Shown: positions 14,326 through 63,147 of the stretch, one piece after another
Layout: every line of letters begins with the position of its first letter
How positions within the stretch are numbered: the stretch's first letter is position 1
DNA from: Botryllus schlosseri
Lineage: Eukaryota
Direction of reading: 5' to 3'
Length of the DNA: 64,000 nucleotides
Assembly (NCBI GenBank): GCA_051294905.1
Contig: CM119371.1
Location: forward strand, 27,778,001-27,842,000
Translations under genes and position numbers: made by a program
Notes under the pieces: generated by a model
What the model saw: the letters and a program-made list of their open reading frames with translations, nothing else
Database searches by the model: none
Told to the model about the DNA's origin: nothing

Positions 14326-15355
14326 CAGGGTTGTAACCAAGTCACAAGGTTCCACGTCACAAGCCAATCTCACGTTTATAGTTTTGACTCGAGTCAAGTC
14401 GAGTCATTTTGAATTCACCACCGAGTCAAGTCCGAGTCCAAGTCAGTGAGTAGAGCAGGGGTGCGCAAACTAGAGGTCGCCACCCCAATGGGGTCGCTTG
14501 CCTGTTCGCCGGGGTCGCGGAGACGAAAATTATACACCAATGACTATCAGAAGAATGTCAATTAGGCGGATGCTATCGGCAGCTCATTTGTGAATATTTT
14601 AGTTCATTTTTTCAAAATAGAAGAAAAACCAATGCGAACCGGCAAACAAGGTATCAGATCACGCGGAACGTCATTTCAAGCGTCACCTATAAGGTTGGTG
14701 TCTATCAGGGTTGTAACCAAGTCACAAGGTTATGAGTCACAAGTAAATCTCACTTTTTTAGTTTTGACTCGAGTCAAGTCGAGTTTTCTTCAATTCACCA
14801 CCGAGTCAATCCGAGTCCAAGTCAACTATTTGAGGGTCGTGTCCGAGTCCACAACATTGTGACATAACACGTTTGAGTCCGAGTCCAAGTCATTGTGTTT
14901 ACCATTCAGTTTTGACTTCAATCCGGTTGAACCCACTTTTTCAAGTCTGGTCGAGTGATATGGAATGGCCCACTTTCATAATATCGTAATTTTCCTCAGT
15001 TTCTGGCCCTATTTCTCAAGTATAAGGACTGATAGACGAAATACCAATAATGTGGGGACTTTACTATCCTTCGAAGGCGCAATGAAATGTCTGCCTTGGC
15101 CGTCATGAGTTGAGAAAAGTGGGCTGAACCAGATTGAGCAGAAAACTGAACAGTGCACATAATGACTTATTGACTCGGACTTGAGTCAAAACACTACGAC
15201 TCGTACTCGACCCTATAGTCCTCTACTCGCTAACTTGGACTCGGACTTGACTCGACTCGGCGGTTAATAGAAAATGACTCGACTTCACCCGAGTCAAAAC
15301 TATAACATCGAGATTGACTGGTGAATCGGAACCTTGTGACTTGGTTACAAGACTG
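14326..15355. mobile_element. MITE family with GACTC/GAGTC repeats (CAGGGTTGTAACCAAGTCAC TIR), composite locus
   Basis: Left ends at 14326 and 14706, right end at 15355. Relatives at 62584-63147 and a fragment at 34901-35003. No clean TSD. Confidence 0.75.
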
Positions 15356-31263: not shown

Positions 31264-32775
31264 CTACAGCCGCCTTCGTATTATCTCACGTAAAATGCGA
31301 GCAAGGCCCTTTTTCGAATCGGACACCAGGTCATTGAGAACAATTTCCTCCGCTATAAACTCTTCCGAGAACTCATCAAGCCTCAAGGCCGCGAACATAT
31401 CTTCGAAGACAGCCTCTCTGTCATCGTAGTCGTGATTCACCCATTTCATTAGCGCCTCCCATACTTTATCCGCACCGGAGTCATAAGTGGACCTCGACGC
31501 GAGGTACTTTTGCATGTCATCCGGAGACAGATATACAAACTCCGACAAATGCGAAACTCGGAAGAACTCCCCGGTGATACATTCGTCGACGTGGTGTTCT
31601 GTTCGCGTGCACCCGTACTTTTTAGCGAGCTCTTTCAAAAATAAGCAGTGCTGCGGGAACCAGAAGTTCCATTCGTCGTCCGAACTGACGCCGTTCGATT
31701 CGGAGAATCCTACGAACACGCAGAGGCTCGAGAGGAAGGTGCACTCAAGATATGAGTCGGGATTCTCAACGTGGTAAAACATGTCCCGAAAAATGCAGTG
31801 CCTGTCTGAGTCGTTTTTTAGCCACTGTAATATCGACGTGAACTCAGCCGGGCTGCACATGTCCGGTATCTCTGACACGCATGCCATTAGGTCTTCGTGC
31901 GTTAATGTTTCTATGAGAACACTAGTCAGCATTTCGCGGTGATTTTGCACTATGTATTGATTGATGAGTTCTTCAACCTCGCCAAAAGCGTAGTCCCTCG
32001 CTAGAGTTTTAAGAAAAACCAACTCATCGACTTGTATTCTTTCAGGAATACGTTTAGCGCTGCCCAAAAATTGATGCGCCGCTATGCTTTTACAGTTTTC
32101 GCACGTAGAAATGTGCCCGTGTACCCACGCCTCGTTTTGGAACTGATCTACATCAAAGGAACCGAACGGAACAACGTTGACAGCGCGGCAAATTCGATGG
32201 TCAGTGTGGGCGCTCCAAGACTTGAACAATATCCAAATCTGTTCGGAGTCATCGGTAGCTGCGGATGCAATGGATTTCACATCGACTGACGACATATCGC
32301 CGATATTTCTCGTTTGGGCGACTTCGTCCGTGTTGTTGAGAATGAATTCGTTAGTGGCTTGACTCAGCTTCAGTAAGGAATACTGGGTGGACAGTATCCG
32401 CATTTGAACGCAATTGGCAAGGTTGAGATTGTCCGTTAAAAAGTTTTCGCATTGGTTTTTGGCCGGTAGCAGATTCAAATGGTCGGACAGCTCCATCACT
32501 TCAACTACATTGTGCGGGCCTATTTCCAGTTCTTCAGTATACATGTACACGAGGCATATCTCCACCGTGTCTGGCGTGTAACCCACGAGCTCGTAAGTCC
32601 CGTCATTGTTTTCCTTGAAGATGATGTCGTGGAAAAACGAGGAGTTTCGCCCTAGAAACACACGATGTACAGGGAAAAGGGTGAAGTCGACCTTTATGGT
32701 GAAGTCAGTGTAATCGCAGCTGTGGTTGGATCTCTTCAAGTGGCGGGTGCGCGTTAAAACTTGCTCGGGACTCAT
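31264..32775 (-). CDS. BTB/POZ protein with tandem BACK-like domains, no kelch repeats
   Basis: 503 aa ORF. BTB motif TDFTIKV..FPVHRVFL..SSFF..YMYT; BACK-like helices starting at CVQMRILS, LVFLKTLA and CLFLKELA; ends VWEALMKWVNHDYDDR...RL. Confidence 0.88.
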   Translation of the reverse strand: MSPEQVLTRTRHLKRSNHSCDYTDFTIKVDFTLFPVHRVFLGRNSSFFHDIIFKENNDGTYELVGYTPDTVEICLVYMYTEELEIGPHNVVEVMELSDHLNLLPAKNQCENFLTDNLNLANCVQMRILSTQYSLLKLSQATNEFILNNTDEVAQTRNIGDMSSVDVKSIASAATDDSEQIWILFKSWSAHTDHRICRAVNVVPFGSFDVDQFQNEAWVHGHISTCENCKSIAAHQFLGSAKRIPERIQVDELVFLKTLARDYAFGEVEELINQYIVQNHREMLTSVLIETLTHEDLMACVSEIPDMCSPAEFTSILQWLKNDSDRHCIFRDMFYHVENPDSYLECTFLSSLCVFVGFSESNGVSSDDEWNFWFPQHCLFLKELAKKYGCTRTEHHVDECITGEFFRVSHLSEFVYLSPDDMQKYLASRSTYDSGADKVWEALMKWVNHDYDDREAVFEDMFAALRLDEFSEEFIAEEIVLNDLVSDSKKGLARILREIIRRRL

Positions 32776-34355
32776 GAATGACTATAACCGAGTATATCCC
32801 AACAGAATTATAGAAGTACTGTGAAAACATATGTGAATACATTATGAAAATAAGTCCGGTAGAAGCCACATATATTGGTTTGATGCTTGCCTATTGTCGG
32901 CAGATGTGGTTAGTAATGACGTACTTTATTTTTGTAGTACGCAATTAGGTTTTGCTTACTTGCACTATACTTAAACACGTGGATATATACATTTCAATAG
33001 TTCTACAGAGGTTTTTGAAGCAACATCACATATATTTTTACACGTTTGATTGTACCCTGAACACGTCATCAGCCGGGGCATAGAGAGTAAAGTAACACGA
33101 TTTAACGCAGAAAAGTCAACAGAGCCTACCGAGCGAACAACCAAAGACGTTTACATCCATCTATACCAGTGGTCGGGAACCTTTTTCGCCTGAAGAGCCA
33201 TGTTAGCCCTATATTTTCCATTTTAACTCCCAAAAAGCCATACAGGTCAATCAATTGTTACGTCACAATTGAAAATTCGTGACGTCATGACAGTACAAAT
33301 TCGACCTCTTTACACGGGATCAGTCGTTGGCGCCATATTTTCTCTGTAAAAACTGGTCGACTACTAATCTTCCTGTGATAACACAATTAATCGTGAATAG
33401 CTCAGAATTTAAAATAATTCATATCAATCTAATATACCTGTAGCACTGATTCCGAAAATTTAAAAATTGATCGACTTCTCAATTCGGCGGTAACATAAAC
33501 ATTGTACTACACGCCTACATTTTTCGGCAGTACTAGAGAGCTGCTTATTATCAATGAAGAACGTTGATAGCGCATAGCGTAGTTTGTAATTTGGATTTGT
33601 TATTGAAATGTCACTTCCATGGCAATTCACTTTTAGGCGTATATCAGGAATACAATGTGTATTTGAAAACTAGATTGTCATGCAGGCGTTCCTATGTCTG
33701 ATATTCTCTTTGATTAACCAACGTGTGGTGCAATCCAAGATTACGCAGCGTGTGATGCCGGGTACATCGAATTCGCCGGGGATATTGGTCGCTGGCGCTA
33801 CAGCAACCTAAATTTTATGACTTTCTAAAGCAGGGATGTCAAACTCAATTTGTGTCTCGGGCCGGATTCAAGCCTTTAAATCGCTCGCGGGCCGGACCAG
33901 TCTATTGATTCCAAACTGTTACCTCGTGCTCTTGCTTTTCACTGAATACGTCAAAACTCAAAAGCATATATTATGGATAATACACGGATCAAGGTTTTTA
34001 AAGTAGCAGCAAGTCGCAGCACCTTTATTCACAGTGGAATTGGCAGAAATACGATGATTGTCCGGTTGAATGCAGTTCAGAACCGCCAAAACAGTGGCGG
34101 AAACGACGATATAAGTGGGCATACTCTATGCTCCCTTTGATGTAGTCCTAATCTGGCGTTATCCCTGTATATGTGGGGAGTACAAGATATTTAATTGGAA
34201 ACGCGGCCTTTGGAATTCGGTTTATTATTATTACATCGTGAGCCCGGTTTCTCTCATGTCTGGGGATCTATCGGGTTGGAAGTGACACAGCAGTGCGAAC
34301 ATAGATATTTCAATTATATATTTAATATACATTTTAATAATATATTCATATTAAA

Positions 34356-34400
34356 ACCCGAAGCTTTTCGAGCTGACACTTTTCAAGGGCAATCGTCAGC
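34356..34400 (-). ncRNA. Type I hammerhead ribozyme motif (inverted pLTR copy)
   Basis: Exact reverse complement of 36252-36296. Confidence 0.72.
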
Positions 34401-34656
34401 AAATGGAGAATTTCAAAAACATGCATCTAGCTACATTGCATACAACCAATTATGACGTCATAGAAACAAACAACATGAAATACAGGCAAACCGCGAGCGC
34501 AGCTAGTGGACAATTTTCAGATTCACTAAAAATTTCTTCTGCTGACACAAGCGCGGTCGGTGGATTTTAATATAAGTCGATTCCAGTGCAGACAAATGGA
34601 AATTAGTGCGGCCTCTACCTAATATCGAAAATCTTTCATCGCGATAGTTTTTAGCG

Positions 34657-34806
34657 CACGATCATGTTGCCGTGAGCGTCTGTGGTGACACCTCGAGGAT
34701 ACTTGAACTGAGACTCGTTGGTTCCTTCCGTTCCCAACTGGAAAAGATGTCGGCCGTACGTGTTGAAAACTTGGATTCTGTGGTTGGTGGAGTCACTGAC
34801 GACCAC
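34657..34806 (-). pseudogene. Captured exon fragment of an NHL-repeat (TRIM-NHL-like) host gene
   Basis: After ctttcactttttcgcag| reads VVVSDSTNHRIQVFNTYGRHLFQLGTEGTNESQFKYPRGVTTDAHGNMIV, a clear NHL repeat. Confidence 0.9.
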
Positions 34807-34997
34807 CTGCGAAAAAGTGAAAGGTCACGGGAGGACAAATTAAACCATTAAACCAAATTAAACTTTATGCCTCGAACCCGAGCACTCTAAACTGTCAACA
34901 ACTCGAGTCTCAGCACTATGACTCGGACCTGGCTCGGTGGTGAATTGAAAATGACTCGACTTGACTCGAGTCAAAACTATAAAATTGAAATTGACTT

Positions 34998-36149
34998 GTG
35001 ACTGTTGAGTTTAGTTTTAACGATACCATCTACATGCAAACCGACGGTGTAGCTATGGGTAGCCCTCTTGGCCCGATTTTAGCCAATATATTTGTGGGAT
35101 TTCATGAAAACAGACTTTTCGCCGCAGATGAAACCAAGCCTCCATTCATGTACCGTCGCTATGTCGACGACACCTTCGTTATCTGTCAAAATGAGACGGA
35201 GTTCGATGATTTCTTTGTTAACTTGAATTCTCTACACTCGTCTTTAAAATTCACATTTGAAAAAGAGCGTGCTAACTCGTTACCATTCTTAGACGTTCTG
35301 ATGGAAAAACGGGGTATTAGCTTTGTCACTTCGGTTTACCGGAAGCCAACGTTTACAGGGCATTACATACGCTGGAATTCTTTTAGCCCGAATCGCCGTA
35401 AATTAAATTTGATTGGCACATTGGTGCACAGAGCCTTGATGATTTGTTCGGATATAAAATTAAACGCGGAGCTAGAATATATCCGCAAAATTCTAATCGG
35501 TAACGGCTACCCCGAACACATCATCAAGAGTTCTGTGGACAGAAAACTCAGTAATTTCAATCCCAACAAATCACAAAACACGAACACACGGTCTGAGGAA
35601 AATGTATATATACATTTGCCGTGGCTGGGCCCCATCTCTTCCCGGTTTGAAAAGCAATTGATTTCTGCTGTAAATCGCTGTTACGATAACGTAAAAACTA
35701 ATGTTGTGTTTACCACCAAACAATTGCTTCCTGCAACGCGCAAAGATGTTCTTCCTGATTTTCAACAAAGCAATATAGTCTATGATTTCAAGTGCCACTG
35801 TGATTGTCGGTACGTGGGAAGAACAACTCAGCGCTTGCAGGAACGCATCAAACAACATGTCCCCAGCGTTATTAGATCACGCATATTGGACTCTCGCGAA
35901 GACGCAGCCGTAACTGATCTCCGATTACTAGAACGTAATCAGGCCATGGCTATGAACTCTGCCATCGGCAAGCATTTGGCTGAGAATGCAACTTGCGCTA
36001 AAAACTATCGCGATGAAAGATTTTCGATATTAGGTAGAGGCCGCACTAATTTCCATTTGTCTGCACTGGAATCGACTTATATTAAAATCCACCGACCGCG
36101 CTTGTGTCAGCAGAAGAAATTTTTAGTGAATCTGAAAATTGTCCACTAG
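34998..36149 (+). CDS. Penelope-like RT (C-terminal part) + GIY-YIG endonuclease, 5'-truncated; homology starts ~35004
   Basis: QTDGVAMGSPLGP, YRRYVDD, LPFLDV, YRKPT; IVYDFKCHCDCRYVGRT..RLQERIKQH..SAIGKHL..ALESTYI. Confidence 0.95.
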   Translation: MTVEFSFNDTIYMQTDGVAMGSPLGPILANIFVGFHENRLFAADETKPPFMYRRYVDDTFVICQNETEFDDFFVNLNSLHSSLKFTFEKERANSLPFLDVLMEKRGISFVTSVYRKPTFTGHYIRWNSFSPNRRKLNLIGTLVHRALMICSDIKLNAELEYIRKILIGNGYPEHIIKSSVDRKLSNFNPNKSQNTNTRSEENVYIHLPWLGPISSRFEKQLISAVNRCYDNVKTNVVFTTKQLLPATRKDVLPDFQQSNIVYDFKCHCDCRYVGRTTQRLQERIKQHVPSVIRSRILDSREDAAVTDLRLLERNQAMAMNSAIGKHLAENATCAKNYRDERFSILGRGRTNFHLSALESTYIKIHRPRLCQQKKFLVNLKIVH

Positions 36150-36251
36150 CTGCGCTCGCGGTTTGCCTGTATTTCATGTTGTTTGTTTCTATGACGTCAT
36201 AATTGGTTGTATGCAATGTAGCTAGATGCATGTTTTTGAAATTCTCCATTT

Positions 36252-36296
36252 GCTGACGATTGCCCTTGAAAAGTGTCAGCTCGAAAAGCTTCGGGT
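36252..36296 (+). ncRNA. Type I hammerhead ribozyme motif, U3-A8 core variant, predicted pseudoknot
   Basis: GCTGACG..GCCC-TTGAAAA-G-TGTCAGCT-C-GAAA-AGCT-TC-GGGT. Confidence 0.72.
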
Positions 36297-37267
36297 TTTA
36301 ATATGAATATATTATTAAAATGTATATTAAAGTTCTGTACCCCAAAGAGTCTCTTCAATTATATATTTATGTACCTAATATATTTTCCATGTAAACTGCA
36401 TGTAACGGTTATGCATTGACGTTTTCGCTTCTGTAAGTAACTACTTTTTGGTCCATATATTGGTATACAACTCTGAAATTGTGTGCCCTTTTAGGCTTCT
36501 TGACATTGGATGTTATAATTCCACCGAATTGTTGTTACTAGTAGTAACTAGGATAAAACCACAGCACCGCAGTCGGGTGGTTATAATCGGGCCTATGAAC
36601 ATGAAAGTATTTCCTGAAAAAAATGTCAATATTTGTTATAAATGGGCTGGAAAATATAAAAAATTTCAATCTGCTCAGAATTGCTTCGCGGGCTGGATGA
36701 AATCATCTGGCGGGCCGTATGTTTGACACTCCTGTTCTAAAGCGTTCCGAGCCCTTGACCCTGAATGCGCCACTGTCTTGACCTCTCAAATACATGTTTA
36801 TGCTGCCACGAGAATAACTATTCTGGAAGAAAATAGCCCCTGTATCATTGGGAGTTATTATTTTATTTTTAAAGTCCACTTATATACGCATTGTCACTGT
36901 AGTATTTTTGTGCTAGTCTTTCAATTCGAAAATAGCTACCTGCAATTGACTATTGAAAGTACATGCGATTATGCGACGCTTTGACCAAAATCCCTTTCTC
37001 GAGTGGATATGATGTCCGCCGACTTCTGCCTAAATATACTTTTTCAATTAAATCCACCTGCTTTTTATACTAGGAATTTTGTTCAGTAGTTTCTCTATAG
37101 GTTTTGCATCACCTGTACGAGGGAAATCTCATGACAACGAAGAAGAATATCCTCTGTATCAGGGCATCTTAATATTTTCCCCGAACTGCACCAATATTTA
37201 TAGTGCCATTAGTCATGTTGTGCTATAGACCTGCCGATGCCTCTATCAAATCCAAAGGGGTCCATAC

Positions 37268-40675: not shown

Positions 40676-43600
40676 TTCTATACCCTGGCCTAGATATTTC
40701 CGTGTGGCATTTACCGATGGAAGTATAGCAACAGGGATGCTCTTTTTAGTACAGGTCCATACTGAAGTCTGAAAGTCCATCAGGTCCGTTAAAAATCTTA
40801 CATATATACTGTTTTGGTTGGCTATATACTTGTAGTGATGACTAAAAATGAAATAGAAATTCCCTCTCCCGCCTGCCGGCTCAATCCGCATAATCTGCTC
40901 GTGAATACTGTTGTTCTCGACTTGTTTGCGTTGGTTTACCTTATACTTGTGATGATGATGATGATGACTATAAAACAAAGGAATGTCAACTTTTCCGTCC
41001 GTCTACGCGCCAGATCCCAATATTGTGCTTATGGTCCGGAGTCCGGATACATTATACATCAAATGTCCACCTGATAAGATGAGTAGCCCTGCTATACACC
41101 ATCCGCACCTTGAAGTGTTAATAATTTTATTGCTAAAACGGGCAGTCGCGAGCGCGTCAAAACGTATCGATATCCAGTCGCCTACTCTTTGACGGATGTT
41201 TGGCTGCATACCATTCGTTTGAGTTATTGTGATATACGAGAGACGTTACTAACTGGACGACAGCTATTGATCTGAAGAGGTATTTGTAACCTACGCAATT
41301 ACTGCTTCGTTGCAGCAGTCGTCAAAGCCTTTAGTCGGAGATGAGGGAACATAATATTTTCAATTCCAGATCCAGAATCCATTTCAAGAGCCATGCTAAT
41401 CCAAGTTTAAGTTTAGTGACTGATGTTTATACTCATGCGTCGCTTGGACATTGAATACTGTTGAATCGTTCATGACAGAGTCCGAATTCATCTTCAAATA
41501 TTTGTATGTCCACATCCAGTCAAAGTGCTCAGCTCTGTTATTTTCTAATCCTTAGCAATTTCCGTACTAATGTCTCTCGATTAATATCATCACCTCGAGT
41601 TTCAGGTGTGCTGTAGGAGTTGCGGGTATTTAGGCGAACAGATCGGGTCAGAACATATGTTGCGTGAAGAATACTCTTCGAGGTACAGAACTTCCTTACA
41701 ATTCAATAATATATTCATATTGGAATAAACCTAATCTTCTCAGCTGAAGATCGCCTGGGTTAATCGCCAGCAACTAGAAGAGATCAAACAAACATTGTAT
41801 ATCAACAATCACGATAGGTTATATTATTAAATTGTATAACATTGTGTCCAACAGGGACTATATACTACTGTACCGTGTAATGGTACAAAATGACCGTGGT
41901 CGGTGGACATCTGCACACTCATCTCACCAACCAACCCACCAACATCCGTTGTTTCAGGAATGAAATGAATGAGATCACAATGCATCAAGTTGCGGGTATG
42001 CAGACACTATTACTCGGCATCCGATAGTTGTAACCTCTAACATTCGATTGTTTCGTCACGTGTGCATCCGGCTTAACAATACGATGAGGAGACCAGCATA
42101 CAGTGGGTGTATTTAGCTGTAGGATGGCTGTTACGTAAGCCACCTGGAAGGTGTAATGTCTGTCTGATATTAGTCGTGGCCGAGTACTATAAGGTTACAG
42201 TTACAAGCAGACTAAGAGCGAAATGCCAATAATCTAATTCTAATGTAATTTGTGAAATGTTTCCATGCTATAATTCCTGAATCTAATCTAAGTTTTGGTT
42301 TTACTGAAAATCCGACAGTAGAACTGCATCGTGCGAAACGACCCAAGCTTGGTGCACACTGTACAAACATCGCCCAATGTCCATTCTTACGCTCGCGAGG
42401 CTGAATTATGATTTGATATAAACTAATCTTGTTTTTTATTGCATTTGGCTCCAATTCAGGATTTAATTCAATTTCGAAGAGCTCAGCAATTATACTTAAA
42501 ACAAATTTGGAAAAAATGAGTAGTTCTGAGTCTAATTCGAATCTAATTGGGAAAAGCTGGGATTATCCTATATAGTTGTCCAACTTTTTTTTACAAGCGT
42601 TGATTAGCGCCGGTAACCGTGGCCTATTCATTCATTTCTAGACAGACATGCAGATTTGTTGTCTTATCCAGAAAGTCAGTAGGAACAATAGATAACGGAG
42701 TGAAAGATACAATAGCATATATTTCCACAGGTACGTAACGACGACCCCGTGCAAAGTCTGCAATGTGCATATTATTATCTTATCTGATATGCGACAGCAT
42801 AGCACAGGGGTCGGGTCAAACGTGGTCAGCAACATCCGTACTACTACTGCAGTTTTTCGTAGTAATCAAATGGATCTCTCTAGTACTATCTGCTATAGCG
42901 GTTATAATTTAAGTAAACTCTACTTCTAATTCGGTTTAGGCAAAACTATATAGGCCAGGAATACTTAGGTTGTTATTATTATAACCTATATTTATACAAT
43001 GCTTGCTCTAAATTTATCTTTTATCGCATCTGTATTGAATGTTGACTCTACGTATATAAGTGGGATTTCATATATATGTTCATTGTTCACGTTTATTACC
43101 TATATATGCATCAAACACTTCAAACGGGTGGCGACTGACTCTAAAGGCGTAACGGTCCATCGTCGTATCTCAGTCTATACCGCAATTTTGTTTCGTATAC
43201 TTCTTTATTTATTGGTGTGACGAATAAAAGCCTATCTATCTAACAGGGCGACTATTTTTTGTCATTGCAAGATAATGTTAAAAATTGGTCCAAATTGTAG
43301 CGTTAGGTCAAAAAATTGTATATAACAGTGATTCCCAACCGCGGCTCCGAGGGCCGCGTACGGCCCGCAGATAGCCTTCTTGCGGCCCCCACAAAATATT
43401 TAGAAATCGAGTATTGACAAAAAATAAAATTTTATATTGATAAAATGCACATACTTGGCTTGGAGTCTGGAGTTTTTAATTAAGATTGCAGGAAAGTCGT
43501 GAGTAGACTGCTAACGTTACGTCGCTGCTGTTCCAATGCAATGTGCCCTAACTTTCCAGTTGAACGAGCAGTAGCTACAGTTGCAATATGGTTTAATAAT

Positions 43601-44774
43601 ATTATTAAACCGCGAGTCCGGTTTCTCTCGTGTCTGGGGATCTATTGGGTCGAAAGTGACACAGCAGCGCGACCGTATGACATTTCAATTGTATACTTGT
43701 GGAACTAGTATATTTTCCATGCATACTGCATATATCGGCTCCGCATTGGCGTTTTCGCTTCTGTGAATAACTACTTTGTGGTCTATATTTGTATAATACT
43801 CTGAACTTGGTACGCACTTTTTGCTTTCTTGAAATTGGATGCCAATTTCACTGACTTGCTACTAGTGATAACTAGAGTGAAACCACAGCGCAGTATAGTC
43901 GAGTAGTTATAATGAAGCCTGTGACCTTGGAAATATTTCCTGCAAAAAAATCTCAAAATATTTTTACAAATGTGCTGGAAAATGTTAGAATTTTTCAATC
44001 TACTCAGAATTGCTTCGCGGGCCGGATGAACTCGTCTGGCGGACCGTATGTTTGACACTATTGCTATAAAGTGAGAAGTTTATGAACGATTTGGATATGA
44101 TTACGTGAATTCAAATGTATTTCTTATTTCATATGAACTGAGATTGGCTATACCGGCAAACTAGCCGCGGAGTAACTAAAGATGTCGTGGTGATTTGCGT
44201 TTGCTCTCCATATCGGTGACATAATCTGTACGATTGAGCTAACGCTAGCTTCTCAGAGCCGCATATTCGATTTTTTTTTAGTGATATTATCAGTAGTCTC
44301 AAATTTCCGATTTTATTGGTAGGTCAACCAAAGAATTACTAACGAGATCATCGCTCCGACAGCACAATAATCAAAGTTCGAACTGCTGGGTTATACTTCT
44401 CGGAAAGTGTATTGCTGATAGCGAAATGTCATGACGGCACCAGGAAGTTCGACAATTACAGCTAGTGTCATAAATAACGAGGTATTCAGAATGCAGAGTT
44501 TGTGTTTAGCTTGGGTTGAAGGCTTGAGCTCCCACCCGGGACGGAATTCCTCACTTTGGGTGAATTTTGTCTGACTTTAGGTTAGTAAAAGTAAGGTATA
44601 CCTGGACTCAGCATTTAAAGAAAAATCGATGACAGAACTTTATTGCATGAAACTATAGTTCATTCGAAATGTGTCTTCACTTTATTTAGTCCTCCTTGTT
44701 ATTTAGTTTAATTTTTTTGGCATATGAAAACGGAAACGCGCTGATTTTATGCAGCTTGAGACTTACAGCATTCC

Positions 44775-56286: not shown

Positions 56287-56696
56287 GAGGAGCTTCTTGG
56301 AGGTACAGAACTTCAATATACAATTGAATAGTATATTCATATTGAAATGTATTTTAATCAAAGGCCATTAATTCTGCTATCAGCAAACATTTGTTAGATA
56401 TTCCGATTTGTGCGAATAATTGCCGAGACGACCGATCTCGAATTGTTGGGAAGGGCCGTTCACAACTCACAACCAACGAAAACTCTGTCAACAAATGGAG
56501 TTCGTATATCACCTAAAAATAGTACATTGAACGATCTCTCATTCGAAATTTCATGCTGGTGACGTCATATTTTGTGATACGATTGTTGATATACAATGTT
56601 CTTTCCAATTCTCTGCTAGTTGCTGACGATTACCCCTGACGAGTGTCAGCCGAAAATATTCGGGTTCATTTCAATATGAATATACTATTCAATTGT
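56287..56696 (+). mobile_element. Truncated Penelope-like insertion, second family, with inverted tail
   Basis: Inverted pLTR end at 56287-56349; AINSAISKHL...IVGKGRS and KLCQQMEFVYHLKIVH*; approximate TSD ATAATTCTGTTT/ATAATTATGTTT. An older pLTR copy follows at ~56790-56950. Confidence 0.85.
56622..56665 (+). ncRNA. Type I hammerhead ribozyme motif, canonical core, predicted pseudoknot
   Basis: GCTGACG..ACCC-CTGACGA-G-TGTCAGC-C-GAAA-ATAT-TC-GGGT. Confidence 0.82.
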
Positions 56697-57302
56697 ATAA
56701 TTATGTTTATCGACGCTAATAAAGTGCATGCCCATTGCCCACAGAAAGAGTTCTTACACCATTTAACATAGTAAATTGAGTTTTTTAGGCGATCTCTTCA
56801 CCTCGAATATTCGTAATTTAATGCCGGTGACGACATATATTGTGATGCCATTGTCGATATAGAATGCTCTTTTCAAGTCTCTACTATAGTTGTTGACGAT
56901 CACCCCTTACGAGTGGCAGCCGTAAATATTCGGTTTCATCTCAATATGAATGCAGTATACAATTCTAGATCAATATAACGCTATAAAAGATCTCCAAATT
57001 CCAATTCCCTCCGAAATTGAATTTTTACGAATATGCATTGTTTCGTCTCTAGTATTTGCGCCTCGATACAAGCGAATCACATCTTTTCTGGATTATTATA
57101 ACGCTATAACAGACTTCCAAATTCCTTCCGAAATTTCCTGGGAATTTTGTTTTACGAGTATACTTTGTTTTGCTCTAACGTTTGTGTACTGCATGGTGAC
57201 AGCGAATACCAGTGAAAATACCACACCTTATCTCTTCATTTCTAGATTAATATATGGCTATAAAATACTTCCAATGATATCTATGCAACACGGATTCGCG
57301 TC

Positions 57303-62583: not shown

Positions 62584-63147
62584 CAGGGTTGTAATGAATC
62601 GTGGCATGACTCGACTCGAGTCACGACTTTTTGGTGACTCGACTTGACTCGAGCCATTGTCTCAAATGCGTTAAAATGACTCGACTTGAGTGCATTTGTG
62701 TATTAACTCGCTTGTACTCAAGTCATTGTGTATGACTCAAACCAAGTCGTATGACTCGAGACTAGGACGGCCATTACAGACATTTCATTTTAACTTCGAA
62801 AATAGTAAGGGCACCACGGTATTGGTATTTCGTTCACCAGTCCTAATACTTTGAGAATAGGGCTGAGGGAAATTACGATATTACGAATGCGAACAATTCT
62901 ATATTACTCGAGCGGAGTTGAAAAAAATGTTTGAACCGGATTGAACTTGAAACTGAACAGTTTACACAATGACGTGTACTCGGACTCGAGTCAAAGCACT
63001 ATGACTCGGAGTTGACCCTATACTAGCTGACTTGGACTCGGAATTGACTCGGTGGTGAATTGAAAATGGCTCTACTTGACTCGAGTCAAAACTATAAAAG
63101 TGAGATTGACTTGTGACTTCGAACCTTGTGACTTGGTTACAATCCTG
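62584..63147. mobile_element. GACTC-repeat MITE
   Basis: CAGGGTTGTAA...TTACAATCCTG; homologous to 14706-15355. Confidence 0.8.

Follow-up and report, generated by a model that had tools for sequence, protein, structure and literature searches.

A Penelope-like element insertion in Botryllus schlosseri carrying host DNA, unspliced gene sequence included, probably from two sources, at its head-to-head joint

We analysed a 64-kb stretch of the Botryllus schlosseri genome (hereafter referred to as the window), in which a young Penelope-like element (PLE) has been inserted together with 343 nt of host DNA. This non-Penelope cargo (34659-35001) lies exactly at the joint of the two head-to-head halves of the insertion and consists of part of an NHL-repeat exon, a short unspliced intron-like stretch and an internal fragment of a high-copy terminal inverted repeat (TIR) element that resembles a miniature inverted-repeat transposable element (MITE). 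Comparison with the rest of the genome (a 495-Mb assembly in 219 contigs) indicates that the cargo is more likely to be a mosaic of two sources than a copy of one pre-mRNA. The locus is a new and well-preserved example of the known capture of host DNA by PLEs.

The insertion is bounded by a 16-nt perfect direct repeat (TTCAATTATATATTTA) at 34309-34324 and 36354-36369, which represents the left and right target-site duplications. The size of the duplication is blurred at both ends: the final 4 nt of the left copy can equally be assigned to the adjacent arm, and the first 5 nt of the right copy (TTCAA) are also the continuation of the Penelope unit. These overlaps are the reason why we give the apparent length as up to 16 nt. 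Between the repeats lie an inverted piece of the pseudo-long terminal repeat (pLTR) without a tail (34321-34658, minus strand; the counterpart of unit positions 991-1328 in the right copy), the cargo, and a 5'-truncated Penelope-like copy on the plus strand (35002-36353). This copy comprises a partial open reading frame (ORF) that ends at 36149, the direct pLTR (35994-36331) and, after it, 22 nt of tail (36332-36353), which the left arm lacks. The two inverted arms (34321-34658 and 35994-36331) are 338 nt each and 100% complementary.

The AT-rich DNA that served as the target belongs to a host repeat (33830-36742), and a relative of this repeat, located at 43597-44071 in the same window, is uninterrupted and contains the target site only once (43684-43698). 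The left flank (34223-34323) aligns with 43597-43698 and the right flank (36354-36742) with 43684-44071. This relative is a paralogous copy of the host repeat used for comparison, not an allele of the same locus; its uninterrupted structure with a single target site argues that all of the DNA between the two direct repeats came in as one insertion. A previous sequence-only reading of this locus had proposed just such a single insertion within a target duplication, and the 16-nt repeat and the paralogous empty site bear it out. The same reading held that the host DNA had come with the insertion, unspliced intron-exon boundary included, and that the event was recent; the former agrees with the empty site and with the splice acceptor shared with the paralogs described below, and the latter with the identity of the arms at 338 of 338 positions. 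The right boundary of the cargo had been placed at 35003 and requires a small correction. Penelope homology begins at 35002, not at 35004, because full-length copies read CT before GTTGAG (...ACTTGCTCTGTTGAG in full-length copies, ...ACTTGTGACTGTTGAG at the same place in the window).

The part of the cargo next to the inverted pLTR, read on the minus strand from 34806 to 34659, is a 148-nt exon piece that matches the Pfam NHL family (E 2.8e-6). At the joint of this piece with the pLTR (34659/34658), ATCGTGTGCGAC stands in the paralogs, AACTTGCGCT in the element and ATCGTGCGCT in the window, so that the 2-nt TG overlap suspected earlier from the window alone was recovered in the three-way comparison. 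The exon piece is preceded by a 57-nt intron-like stretch (34807-34863, minus strand; GT...CAG). We aligned the 11 best NHL matches that came back as loci, and the CAG acceptor was common to all 11. The intron before the homologous exon is 52-57 nt long in each of them and has a conserved exon end (...TTCAAACGGCAGA followed by GT) directly upstream. In the window, 34807-34847 resembles the paralog introns, and 34848-34861 is an AT-rich, stutter-like tract resembling a 9-nt unit repeated three times. A GT is found at 34863-34862, exactly 57 nt before the acceptor and in alignment with the GT of the paralogs; it also forms the last two letters of the MITE-like piece that follows. The MITE fragment thus occupies the place of the upstream exon, with the break at or within ~16 nt of the expected 5' splice site. 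The earlier description of the fragment as an intronic MITE is thus contradicted by the short introns and the conserved upstream exon of all 11 paralogs.

In the paralog on contig C8 (locus L003), the exon homologous to the cargo is the last one, with 114 codons to the stop, and four exons carry Pfam NHL matches. The donor had previously been labelled a TRIM-NHL gene. Its NHL half stands, given the Pfam matches on the cargo and on the four C8 exons, whereas its TRIM half found no match in the ORFs scanned: RING, B-box and coiled-coil domains were not detected in plus-strand ORFs of at least 70 codons in the 7.8 kb upstream of the C8 NHL exons, a scan that small exons would escape. The only domain-bearing ORF found there encodes a protein kinase domain (L057:1073-2068; C8:2211072-2212067) and is located 5.8 kb upstream of the NHL exons of this best C8 paralog. 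Flanking NHL exons, which would have spoken for a resident gene at the insertion site, are missing from the window; a tblastn search revealed no NHL-like sequence elsewhere in the 64 kb (next best E 0.39). An RNA-sequencing run (X23, of which ~6% was read) yielded a few reads on 34703-34850. These appear to stem from another paralog and to be uninformative on expression of the donor, because all eight reads at 34728 and 34735 differ from the window; the letter pair that they carry at the two positions occurs in none of the 11 aligned paralogs.

The remaining part of the cargo (34862-35001, minus strand) is a 140-nt internal fragment of a very abundant TIR repeat, cut at both ends; in the alignment, family copies extend ~30 nt further to the CAGGGTTGTAACC terminus in one direction and >150 nt in the other. 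This fragment is identical at 140 of 140 positions to C7:388208-388347, and the next best match among those listed is 94% identical over 101-103 nt. At C7, the sequence runs on leftward as MITE, and rightward the MITE resumes after 4 nt and a nested 2.5-kb TIR element. No NHL-like sequence was found within 8.5 kb of the C7 MITE (best E 0.76). We also considered whether the C7 locus might be a sister chimera, but rejected this idea, as no Penelope sequence surrounds the C7 piece. The nested element (L050:4353-6877; C7:388352-390876) has the termini CAGAGGTGGTC...GACCACCTCTG and lies 4 nt from the end of the piece shared with the cargo. Members of its family adjoin the MITE family at other loci too, and at ~15325 in the window. 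The 84-nt terminal module of the TIR repeat family recurs four more times in the window (14356-14438, 14735-14817, 15238-15324 and 63035-63118), with 82-92% identity.

We searched the B. schlosseri assembly for donors with the whole cargo (40 of 1,163 first-look candidates scored), with the NHL part alone (40 of 41) and with the C7 junction. The sequence-only reading had predicted one near-identical, colinear donor, and none was found among the matches listed. By part, the MITE piece has its 100% match at C7, and no match of the NHL piece exceeds 84%. The best NHL matches are at C10:15483805 (84%, query 6-159) and C8:2218584 (83%), the others ranging from 72 to 83%, so that ~40 places in the genome match at 72-84% identity; none of these ~40 paralog matches extends into the MITE part. 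The position of the MITE fragment in place of the upstream exon, together with its identity to a C7 locus that has no NHL sequence nearby, makes a mosaic of two sources more likely. The idea of one contiguous host pre-mRNA that contributed intron and exon in a single piece fits neither the paralog introns nor the C7 twin.

Assignment of the inserted element to the PLEs is based on the following features. The plus-strand ORF at 34995-36149 (384 codons) matches the reverse transcriptase (RT) family RVT_1 (E 1.9e-5) and, downstream of it, GIY-YIG (E 5e-4; 20.7 bits against a cut-off of 22.6; residues 262-289; the translation reads IVYDFKCHCDCRYVG); both scores fall slightly below the Pfam cut-offs. 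A tandem copy has an 859-codon open frame with both domains, and its RVT_1 match is just under the cut-off (E 1.1e-6; 29.0 bits against 29.6). The neighbours of the element ORF in a protein atlas are animal RT clusters, in one of which 27% of the members carry GIY-YIG. A search of PDB sequences with the ORF gave no match at E <= 0.01. A GIY-YIG domain downstream of the RT is described as a PLE hallmark (Craig et al. 2021, PMC8557442). By the Pfam match, the RT domain expected of an endonuclease-bearing (EN+) PLE is present, and it would be a PLE-type RT, the sister group of TERT.

A search of the assembly with the element returned 3,867 first-look candidates, of which 40 were scored, and these copies are 96-100% identical. 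The nearest other copy among the matches listed differs from the right copy of the window at 5 of 1,350 nt. Many copies are arranged in tandem at a spacing of 2,700 nt, corresponding to a unit of 2.7 kb, and several are head to head. Judging from these copies, the family is young and very abundant. A region on contig C12 (C12:24286558-24322578) contains at least 13 units over 36 kb, with inverted blocks that meet at ~C12:24297415. Within the window, three stretches (56295-56707, 41673-41747 and 2751-2847) resemble the element's pLTR end at 73-87% and probably derive from older or different PLE families. The ORF of the next unit has its ATG at 36303. Upstream of this ATG, 36253-36282 (mirrored at 34370-34399) contains by eye a motif resembling a minimal hammerhead, in which CTGACGA (36253-36259) and TTGAAAA (36266-36272) lie between the complementary GCTGAC and GTCAGC; an Rfam search of the window stretch and of the full unit found no hammerhead at E <= 1.

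Six other head-to-head pairs, which were all that could be recognized among 42 rows of element matches, were mapped against one contiguous tandem stretch used as a ruler. In the four pairs with both ends visible (L041-L044), one outer end always lies at unit position 1316-1328 and is tail-less, and the other lies at 1353-1358 and is tailed. The outer ends in the window are at 1328 (left arm) and 1350 (right arm), and the 22 extra nt of the right arm correspond to the one-sided tail described for PLEs (PMC3846280; PMC8557442). The pattern of outer ends in L041-L044 is consistent with RT starting on the two opposite strands from two fixed sites. By this comparison, the window insertion has the usual build of the family: an inverted, 5'-truncated upstream copy, a one-sided tail and a target duplication in AT-rich DNA. 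The inner joints are more variable. One contains a 29-nt filler (L041:3088-3116; C9:17119000-17125000) that is a snap-back copy of the adjacent arm, one contains a 75-nt filler (L043:4139-4213; C3:19606500-19614500) that consists of a repeated GCATTGTTACCAA stutter, three have overlaps of 2-5 nt and one is blunt. The stutter and snap-back fillers at two of these six joints show that joints in this family can evidently be made messily.

On balance, we favour an explanation in which both target strands were primed, as is common in PLEs, and the complementary DNA (cDNA) of the left, shorter arm switched from Penelope RNA first to an NHL transcript that was still unspliced and next to a template bearing a MITE, after which the two arms were joined. 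In this scheme, which we regard as probable by a modest degree, both strands of the target would be nicked and both would prime RT at two adjacent start sites in the element RNA, one of which would give the tailed end and the other the tail-less end. The rightward cDNA forming the left arm would copy 338 nt of Penelope RNA and then, with the TG overlap, switch to a sense NHL transcript that had not been spliced, entering it in the last exon. From there it would copy 148 nt of exonic sequence and ~40-57 nt of the short intron that precedes it, with stuttering in the AT-rich tract. A second jump would take it onto a template carrying the C7 MITE, of which 140 nt would be copied, and the product would finally be joined to the cDNA of the right arm at 35001/35002, beside an ACTTG homeology. 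Short overlaps are present at all three joints (TG, GT, and CT plus ACTTG). For a sense transcript to have been copied, the NHL piece must read as sense on the strand opposite to the cDNA that extends from the left arm, and this is the orientation found. Priming of both target strands and joining of the inverted halves by microhomology reportedly also characterize twin priming (5' inversion) of LINE-1, which the window insertion resembles. Two head-to-head priming events had already been suggested from the sequence of the window, and they agree both with the other copies of the family and with published PLE biochemistry: a PLE protein studied in vitro cuts both DNA strands and extends them, and its RT starts at two adjacent internal sites, the tail that separates them having its origin there (Frangieh et al. 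2024, PMC11167929).

A variant of this scheme deserves mention, although we consider it speculative and think it improbable. Followed in the direction of cDNA synthesis, both host pieces end where a natural 5' end of an RNA might be expected, and the RT may have jumped upon running off its template. The end of the NHL piece coincides with the expected 5' splice site, which would suit a product of the first splicing step, with the intron still attached to the 3' exon. The MITE piece ends 4 nt away from the terminus of the 2.5-kb TIR element nested in the C7 MITE. Were this variant true, the PLE RT would have sampled nuclear splicing intermediates, and head-to-head fillers would be a fossil record of the RNA ends near the integration complex.

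The structure of the inner joint was checked with raw reads, using de Bruijn (31-mer) contigs of two runs from the same sample. For 34630-34891, run X1 provides a 262-nt contig with zero differences, at a depth of 51, compared with 44.9 for a unique flank contig (34062-34269). In run X2, a 110-nt contig covers 34649-34758 without any difference at a depth of 8.1, compared with 8.35 for the flank. The X1 contig begins 29 letters before the pLTR/exon joint and ends 30 letters past the intron/MITE joint, that is, where a 31-mer graph must break given the other pLTR copies and the C7 twin. We take these data to mean that the joint words are present in the reads at single-copy depth, and we infer from the absence of graph branching that the X1 individual probably has no second copy sharing the NHL stretch. 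Run X9, from another sample, has no depth at 34777-34887, a hole that by itself proves nothing about absence. A candidate empty allele, suggested by loose ends at 34323 in X1 and X2 that resemble the right flank, was rejected, as these ends come from 30-37 contigs of a multi-copy host repeat and are unassignable to this locus.

These reads bear most directly on the suspicion that the locus is a chimera created by assembly at a repeat-rich site. Tandem and inverted PLE structures are indeed known to trouble assemblies (PMC8557442), but the X1 and X2 contigs reproduce 34630-34891 and 34649-34758 without difference and at depths (51 and 8.1) that match the unique flank (44.9 and 8.35), and we regard an artefact of this kind as next to negligible. 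It is also very unlikely that an ordinary head-to-head insertion gained the host DNA at its inner joint later, by secondary insertion, gene conversion or break repair. Palindromic joints are fragile, which speaks for such a two-step history; however, the identity of the arms (338/338) and of the MITE piece (140/140) leaves little time for a second event, and the cargo has neither a second target duplication nor transposon ends.

Two further alternatives concern the nature of the templates. In the version closest to the sequence-only reading, one stretch of pre-mRNA would have been copied from a rearranged NHL gene or pseudogene, in which the intron abuts a MITE fragment and which is missing from the assembly. 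The NHL donor is missing in any case, so that an unusual donor is conceivable, and MITE copies of a young subfamily can be identical. Nevertheless, this version seems to us quite unlikely. Two templates are simpler because a contiguous donor requires that a conserved exon and half of a MITE have been deleted exactly to the 5' splice site, where all 11 paralogs have a normal exon. In addition, the joint lies at an internal position of the MITE and not at its end, the only other copy of the 140-nt variant among the matches listed is that on C7, without NHL sequence (the next best being 94% identical over 101-103 nt), and the joint at 34861/34862 is at single-copy depth in X1. A somewhat stronger competitor, though still an unlikely one in our view, is filling at the DNA level, in which host repair, by end joining or by synthesis-dependent copying, would have connected the two cDNA ends, or a broken intermediate, with short stretches copied from two unlinked genomic sites via microhomology. 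A retained intron and a piece of a non-genic repeat would be natural for DNA templates, every joint has an overlap of 0-5 nt, and the other joints of the family include snap-back and stutter products. The missing NHL donor is equally a problem for this explanation, which must also treat the orientation of the NHL piece, the one predicted by copying of sense RNA, as a 1-in-2 coincidence. Furthermore, for templated insertions of the polymerase-theta type, 140-200 nt copied from other chromosomes would be long.

Several observations weigh against the two-jump RNA scheme that we favour. No NHL donor is present in the assembly, the best match being 84%, and the central template is thus unobserved; the unbranched X1 contig argues that the reads of that individual do not contain an identical NHL donor either, and X1 may come from the assembled individual itself. 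The orientation of the NHL piece, with its 1-in-2 chance, is the only feature that favours an RNA template. Nothing else points to RNA over DNA, as the intron-exon boundary and the MITE fit DNA equally. Host DNA was found at none of the six other head-to-head joints and both of their fillers are Penelope-derived, so that host capture is no demonstrated habit of the family. The tract at 34848-34861 is assigned to neither the paralog intron nor the MITE. With respect to the reads, the X1 contig falls short of a bridging rule of 31 letters on each side at both joints that it reaches (29 and 30), and the unique contigs cover neither the MITE/Penelope joint nor either target junction, all of which are located within repeats.

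[quoted passage not shown] Arkhipova, Yushenova and Rodriguez (2013, PMC3846280), in the part of their report that deals with it, describe host DNA between Penelope pLTRs with target duplications and an empty site, including an intron-bearing nonribosomal peptide synthetase (NRPS) gene, 'a few other cases' of non-coding unrelated sequence between pLTRs with target duplications, and host-derived spacers in Pen1_Av. The B. schlosseri locus shares with these cases the framing of host sequence by pLTRs (including an inverted one), the target duplication, the empty site and the retention of introns. The donor also comes from an expanded multigene family in both species; NHL is listed there among the expanded families of the rotifer genome, not as a captured one. 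In A. vaga, however, a whole intron-containing NRPS gene lies between two direct pLTRs and was read as mobilization in trans (PMC3846280), whereas the window contains what is probably a 343-nt patchwork of two unlinked sources at a head-to-head joint, with an inverted pLTR on one side and a truncated coding copy on the other, and its donor gene was not found.

In other respects, the insertion corresponds to the canonical PLE of Craig et al. (PMC8557442), with partial tandems, pLTRs, an inverted 5'-truncated upstream copy, a one-sided tail and an AT-rich target, and these authors restate that PLEs are able to retrotranspose intron-containing host genes. It likewise resembles the in vitro system in the proposed cleavage and extension of both strands and in the two adjacent internal RT starts (PMC11167929). 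The dimensions differ: the tail in the B. schlosseri element is 22-30 nt, and its start sites lie ~28 and 50-58 nt after the ATG, versus 111-118 nt in the anole element (PMC11167929). Host filler at the inverted joint is not described in the portions of these two papers considered here (PMC8557442, PMC11167929). The position at a head-to-head joint and the two-source mosaic thus appear to be the particular points of this locus, within a literature that was not searched specifically for filler at inverted PLE joints. RT jumps of LINE-1 also give rise to element-host RNA chimeras within one target duplication, as reported in PMC13174262 and PMC4476161. LINE-1 belongs to another RT clade and has another endonuclease, and its chimeras usually contain processed (spliced or small) RNAs, in contrast to the unspliced NHL piece found here.

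The sequence-only reading had further seen exon shuffling as the outcome of this event, and for that we found no support. The captured exon is a 148-nt fragment, its frame meets a stop 3 codons into the pLTR, and the insertion lies inside a host repeat, ~1.5 kb from the nearest recognizable ORF. We found no sign of a gene gaining an exon, and the product is most simply regarded as an inert mosaic filler and not as a new gene. The nearest ORF (31264-32781, minus strand) is intronless, comprises 505 codons with BTB and BACK domains, and starts ~1.5 kb from the insertion.

Taken by itself, the locus changes no gene and establishes no new principle. It does provide a clean and datable case of a PLE leaving unspliced host gene sequence at a new site, with arms identical at 338 of 338 positions and a source piece identical at 140 of 140. 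It also backs the published view that PLEs, unlike long interspersed nuclear elements (LINEs), can move intron-bearing host DNA, and shows that a head-to-head joint is able to take up a mosaic of unrelated templates. The element family has thousands of young copies in the B. schlosseri genome, and their joints could tell RNA-copied from DNA-copied fillers and reveal how frequently exons are among them.

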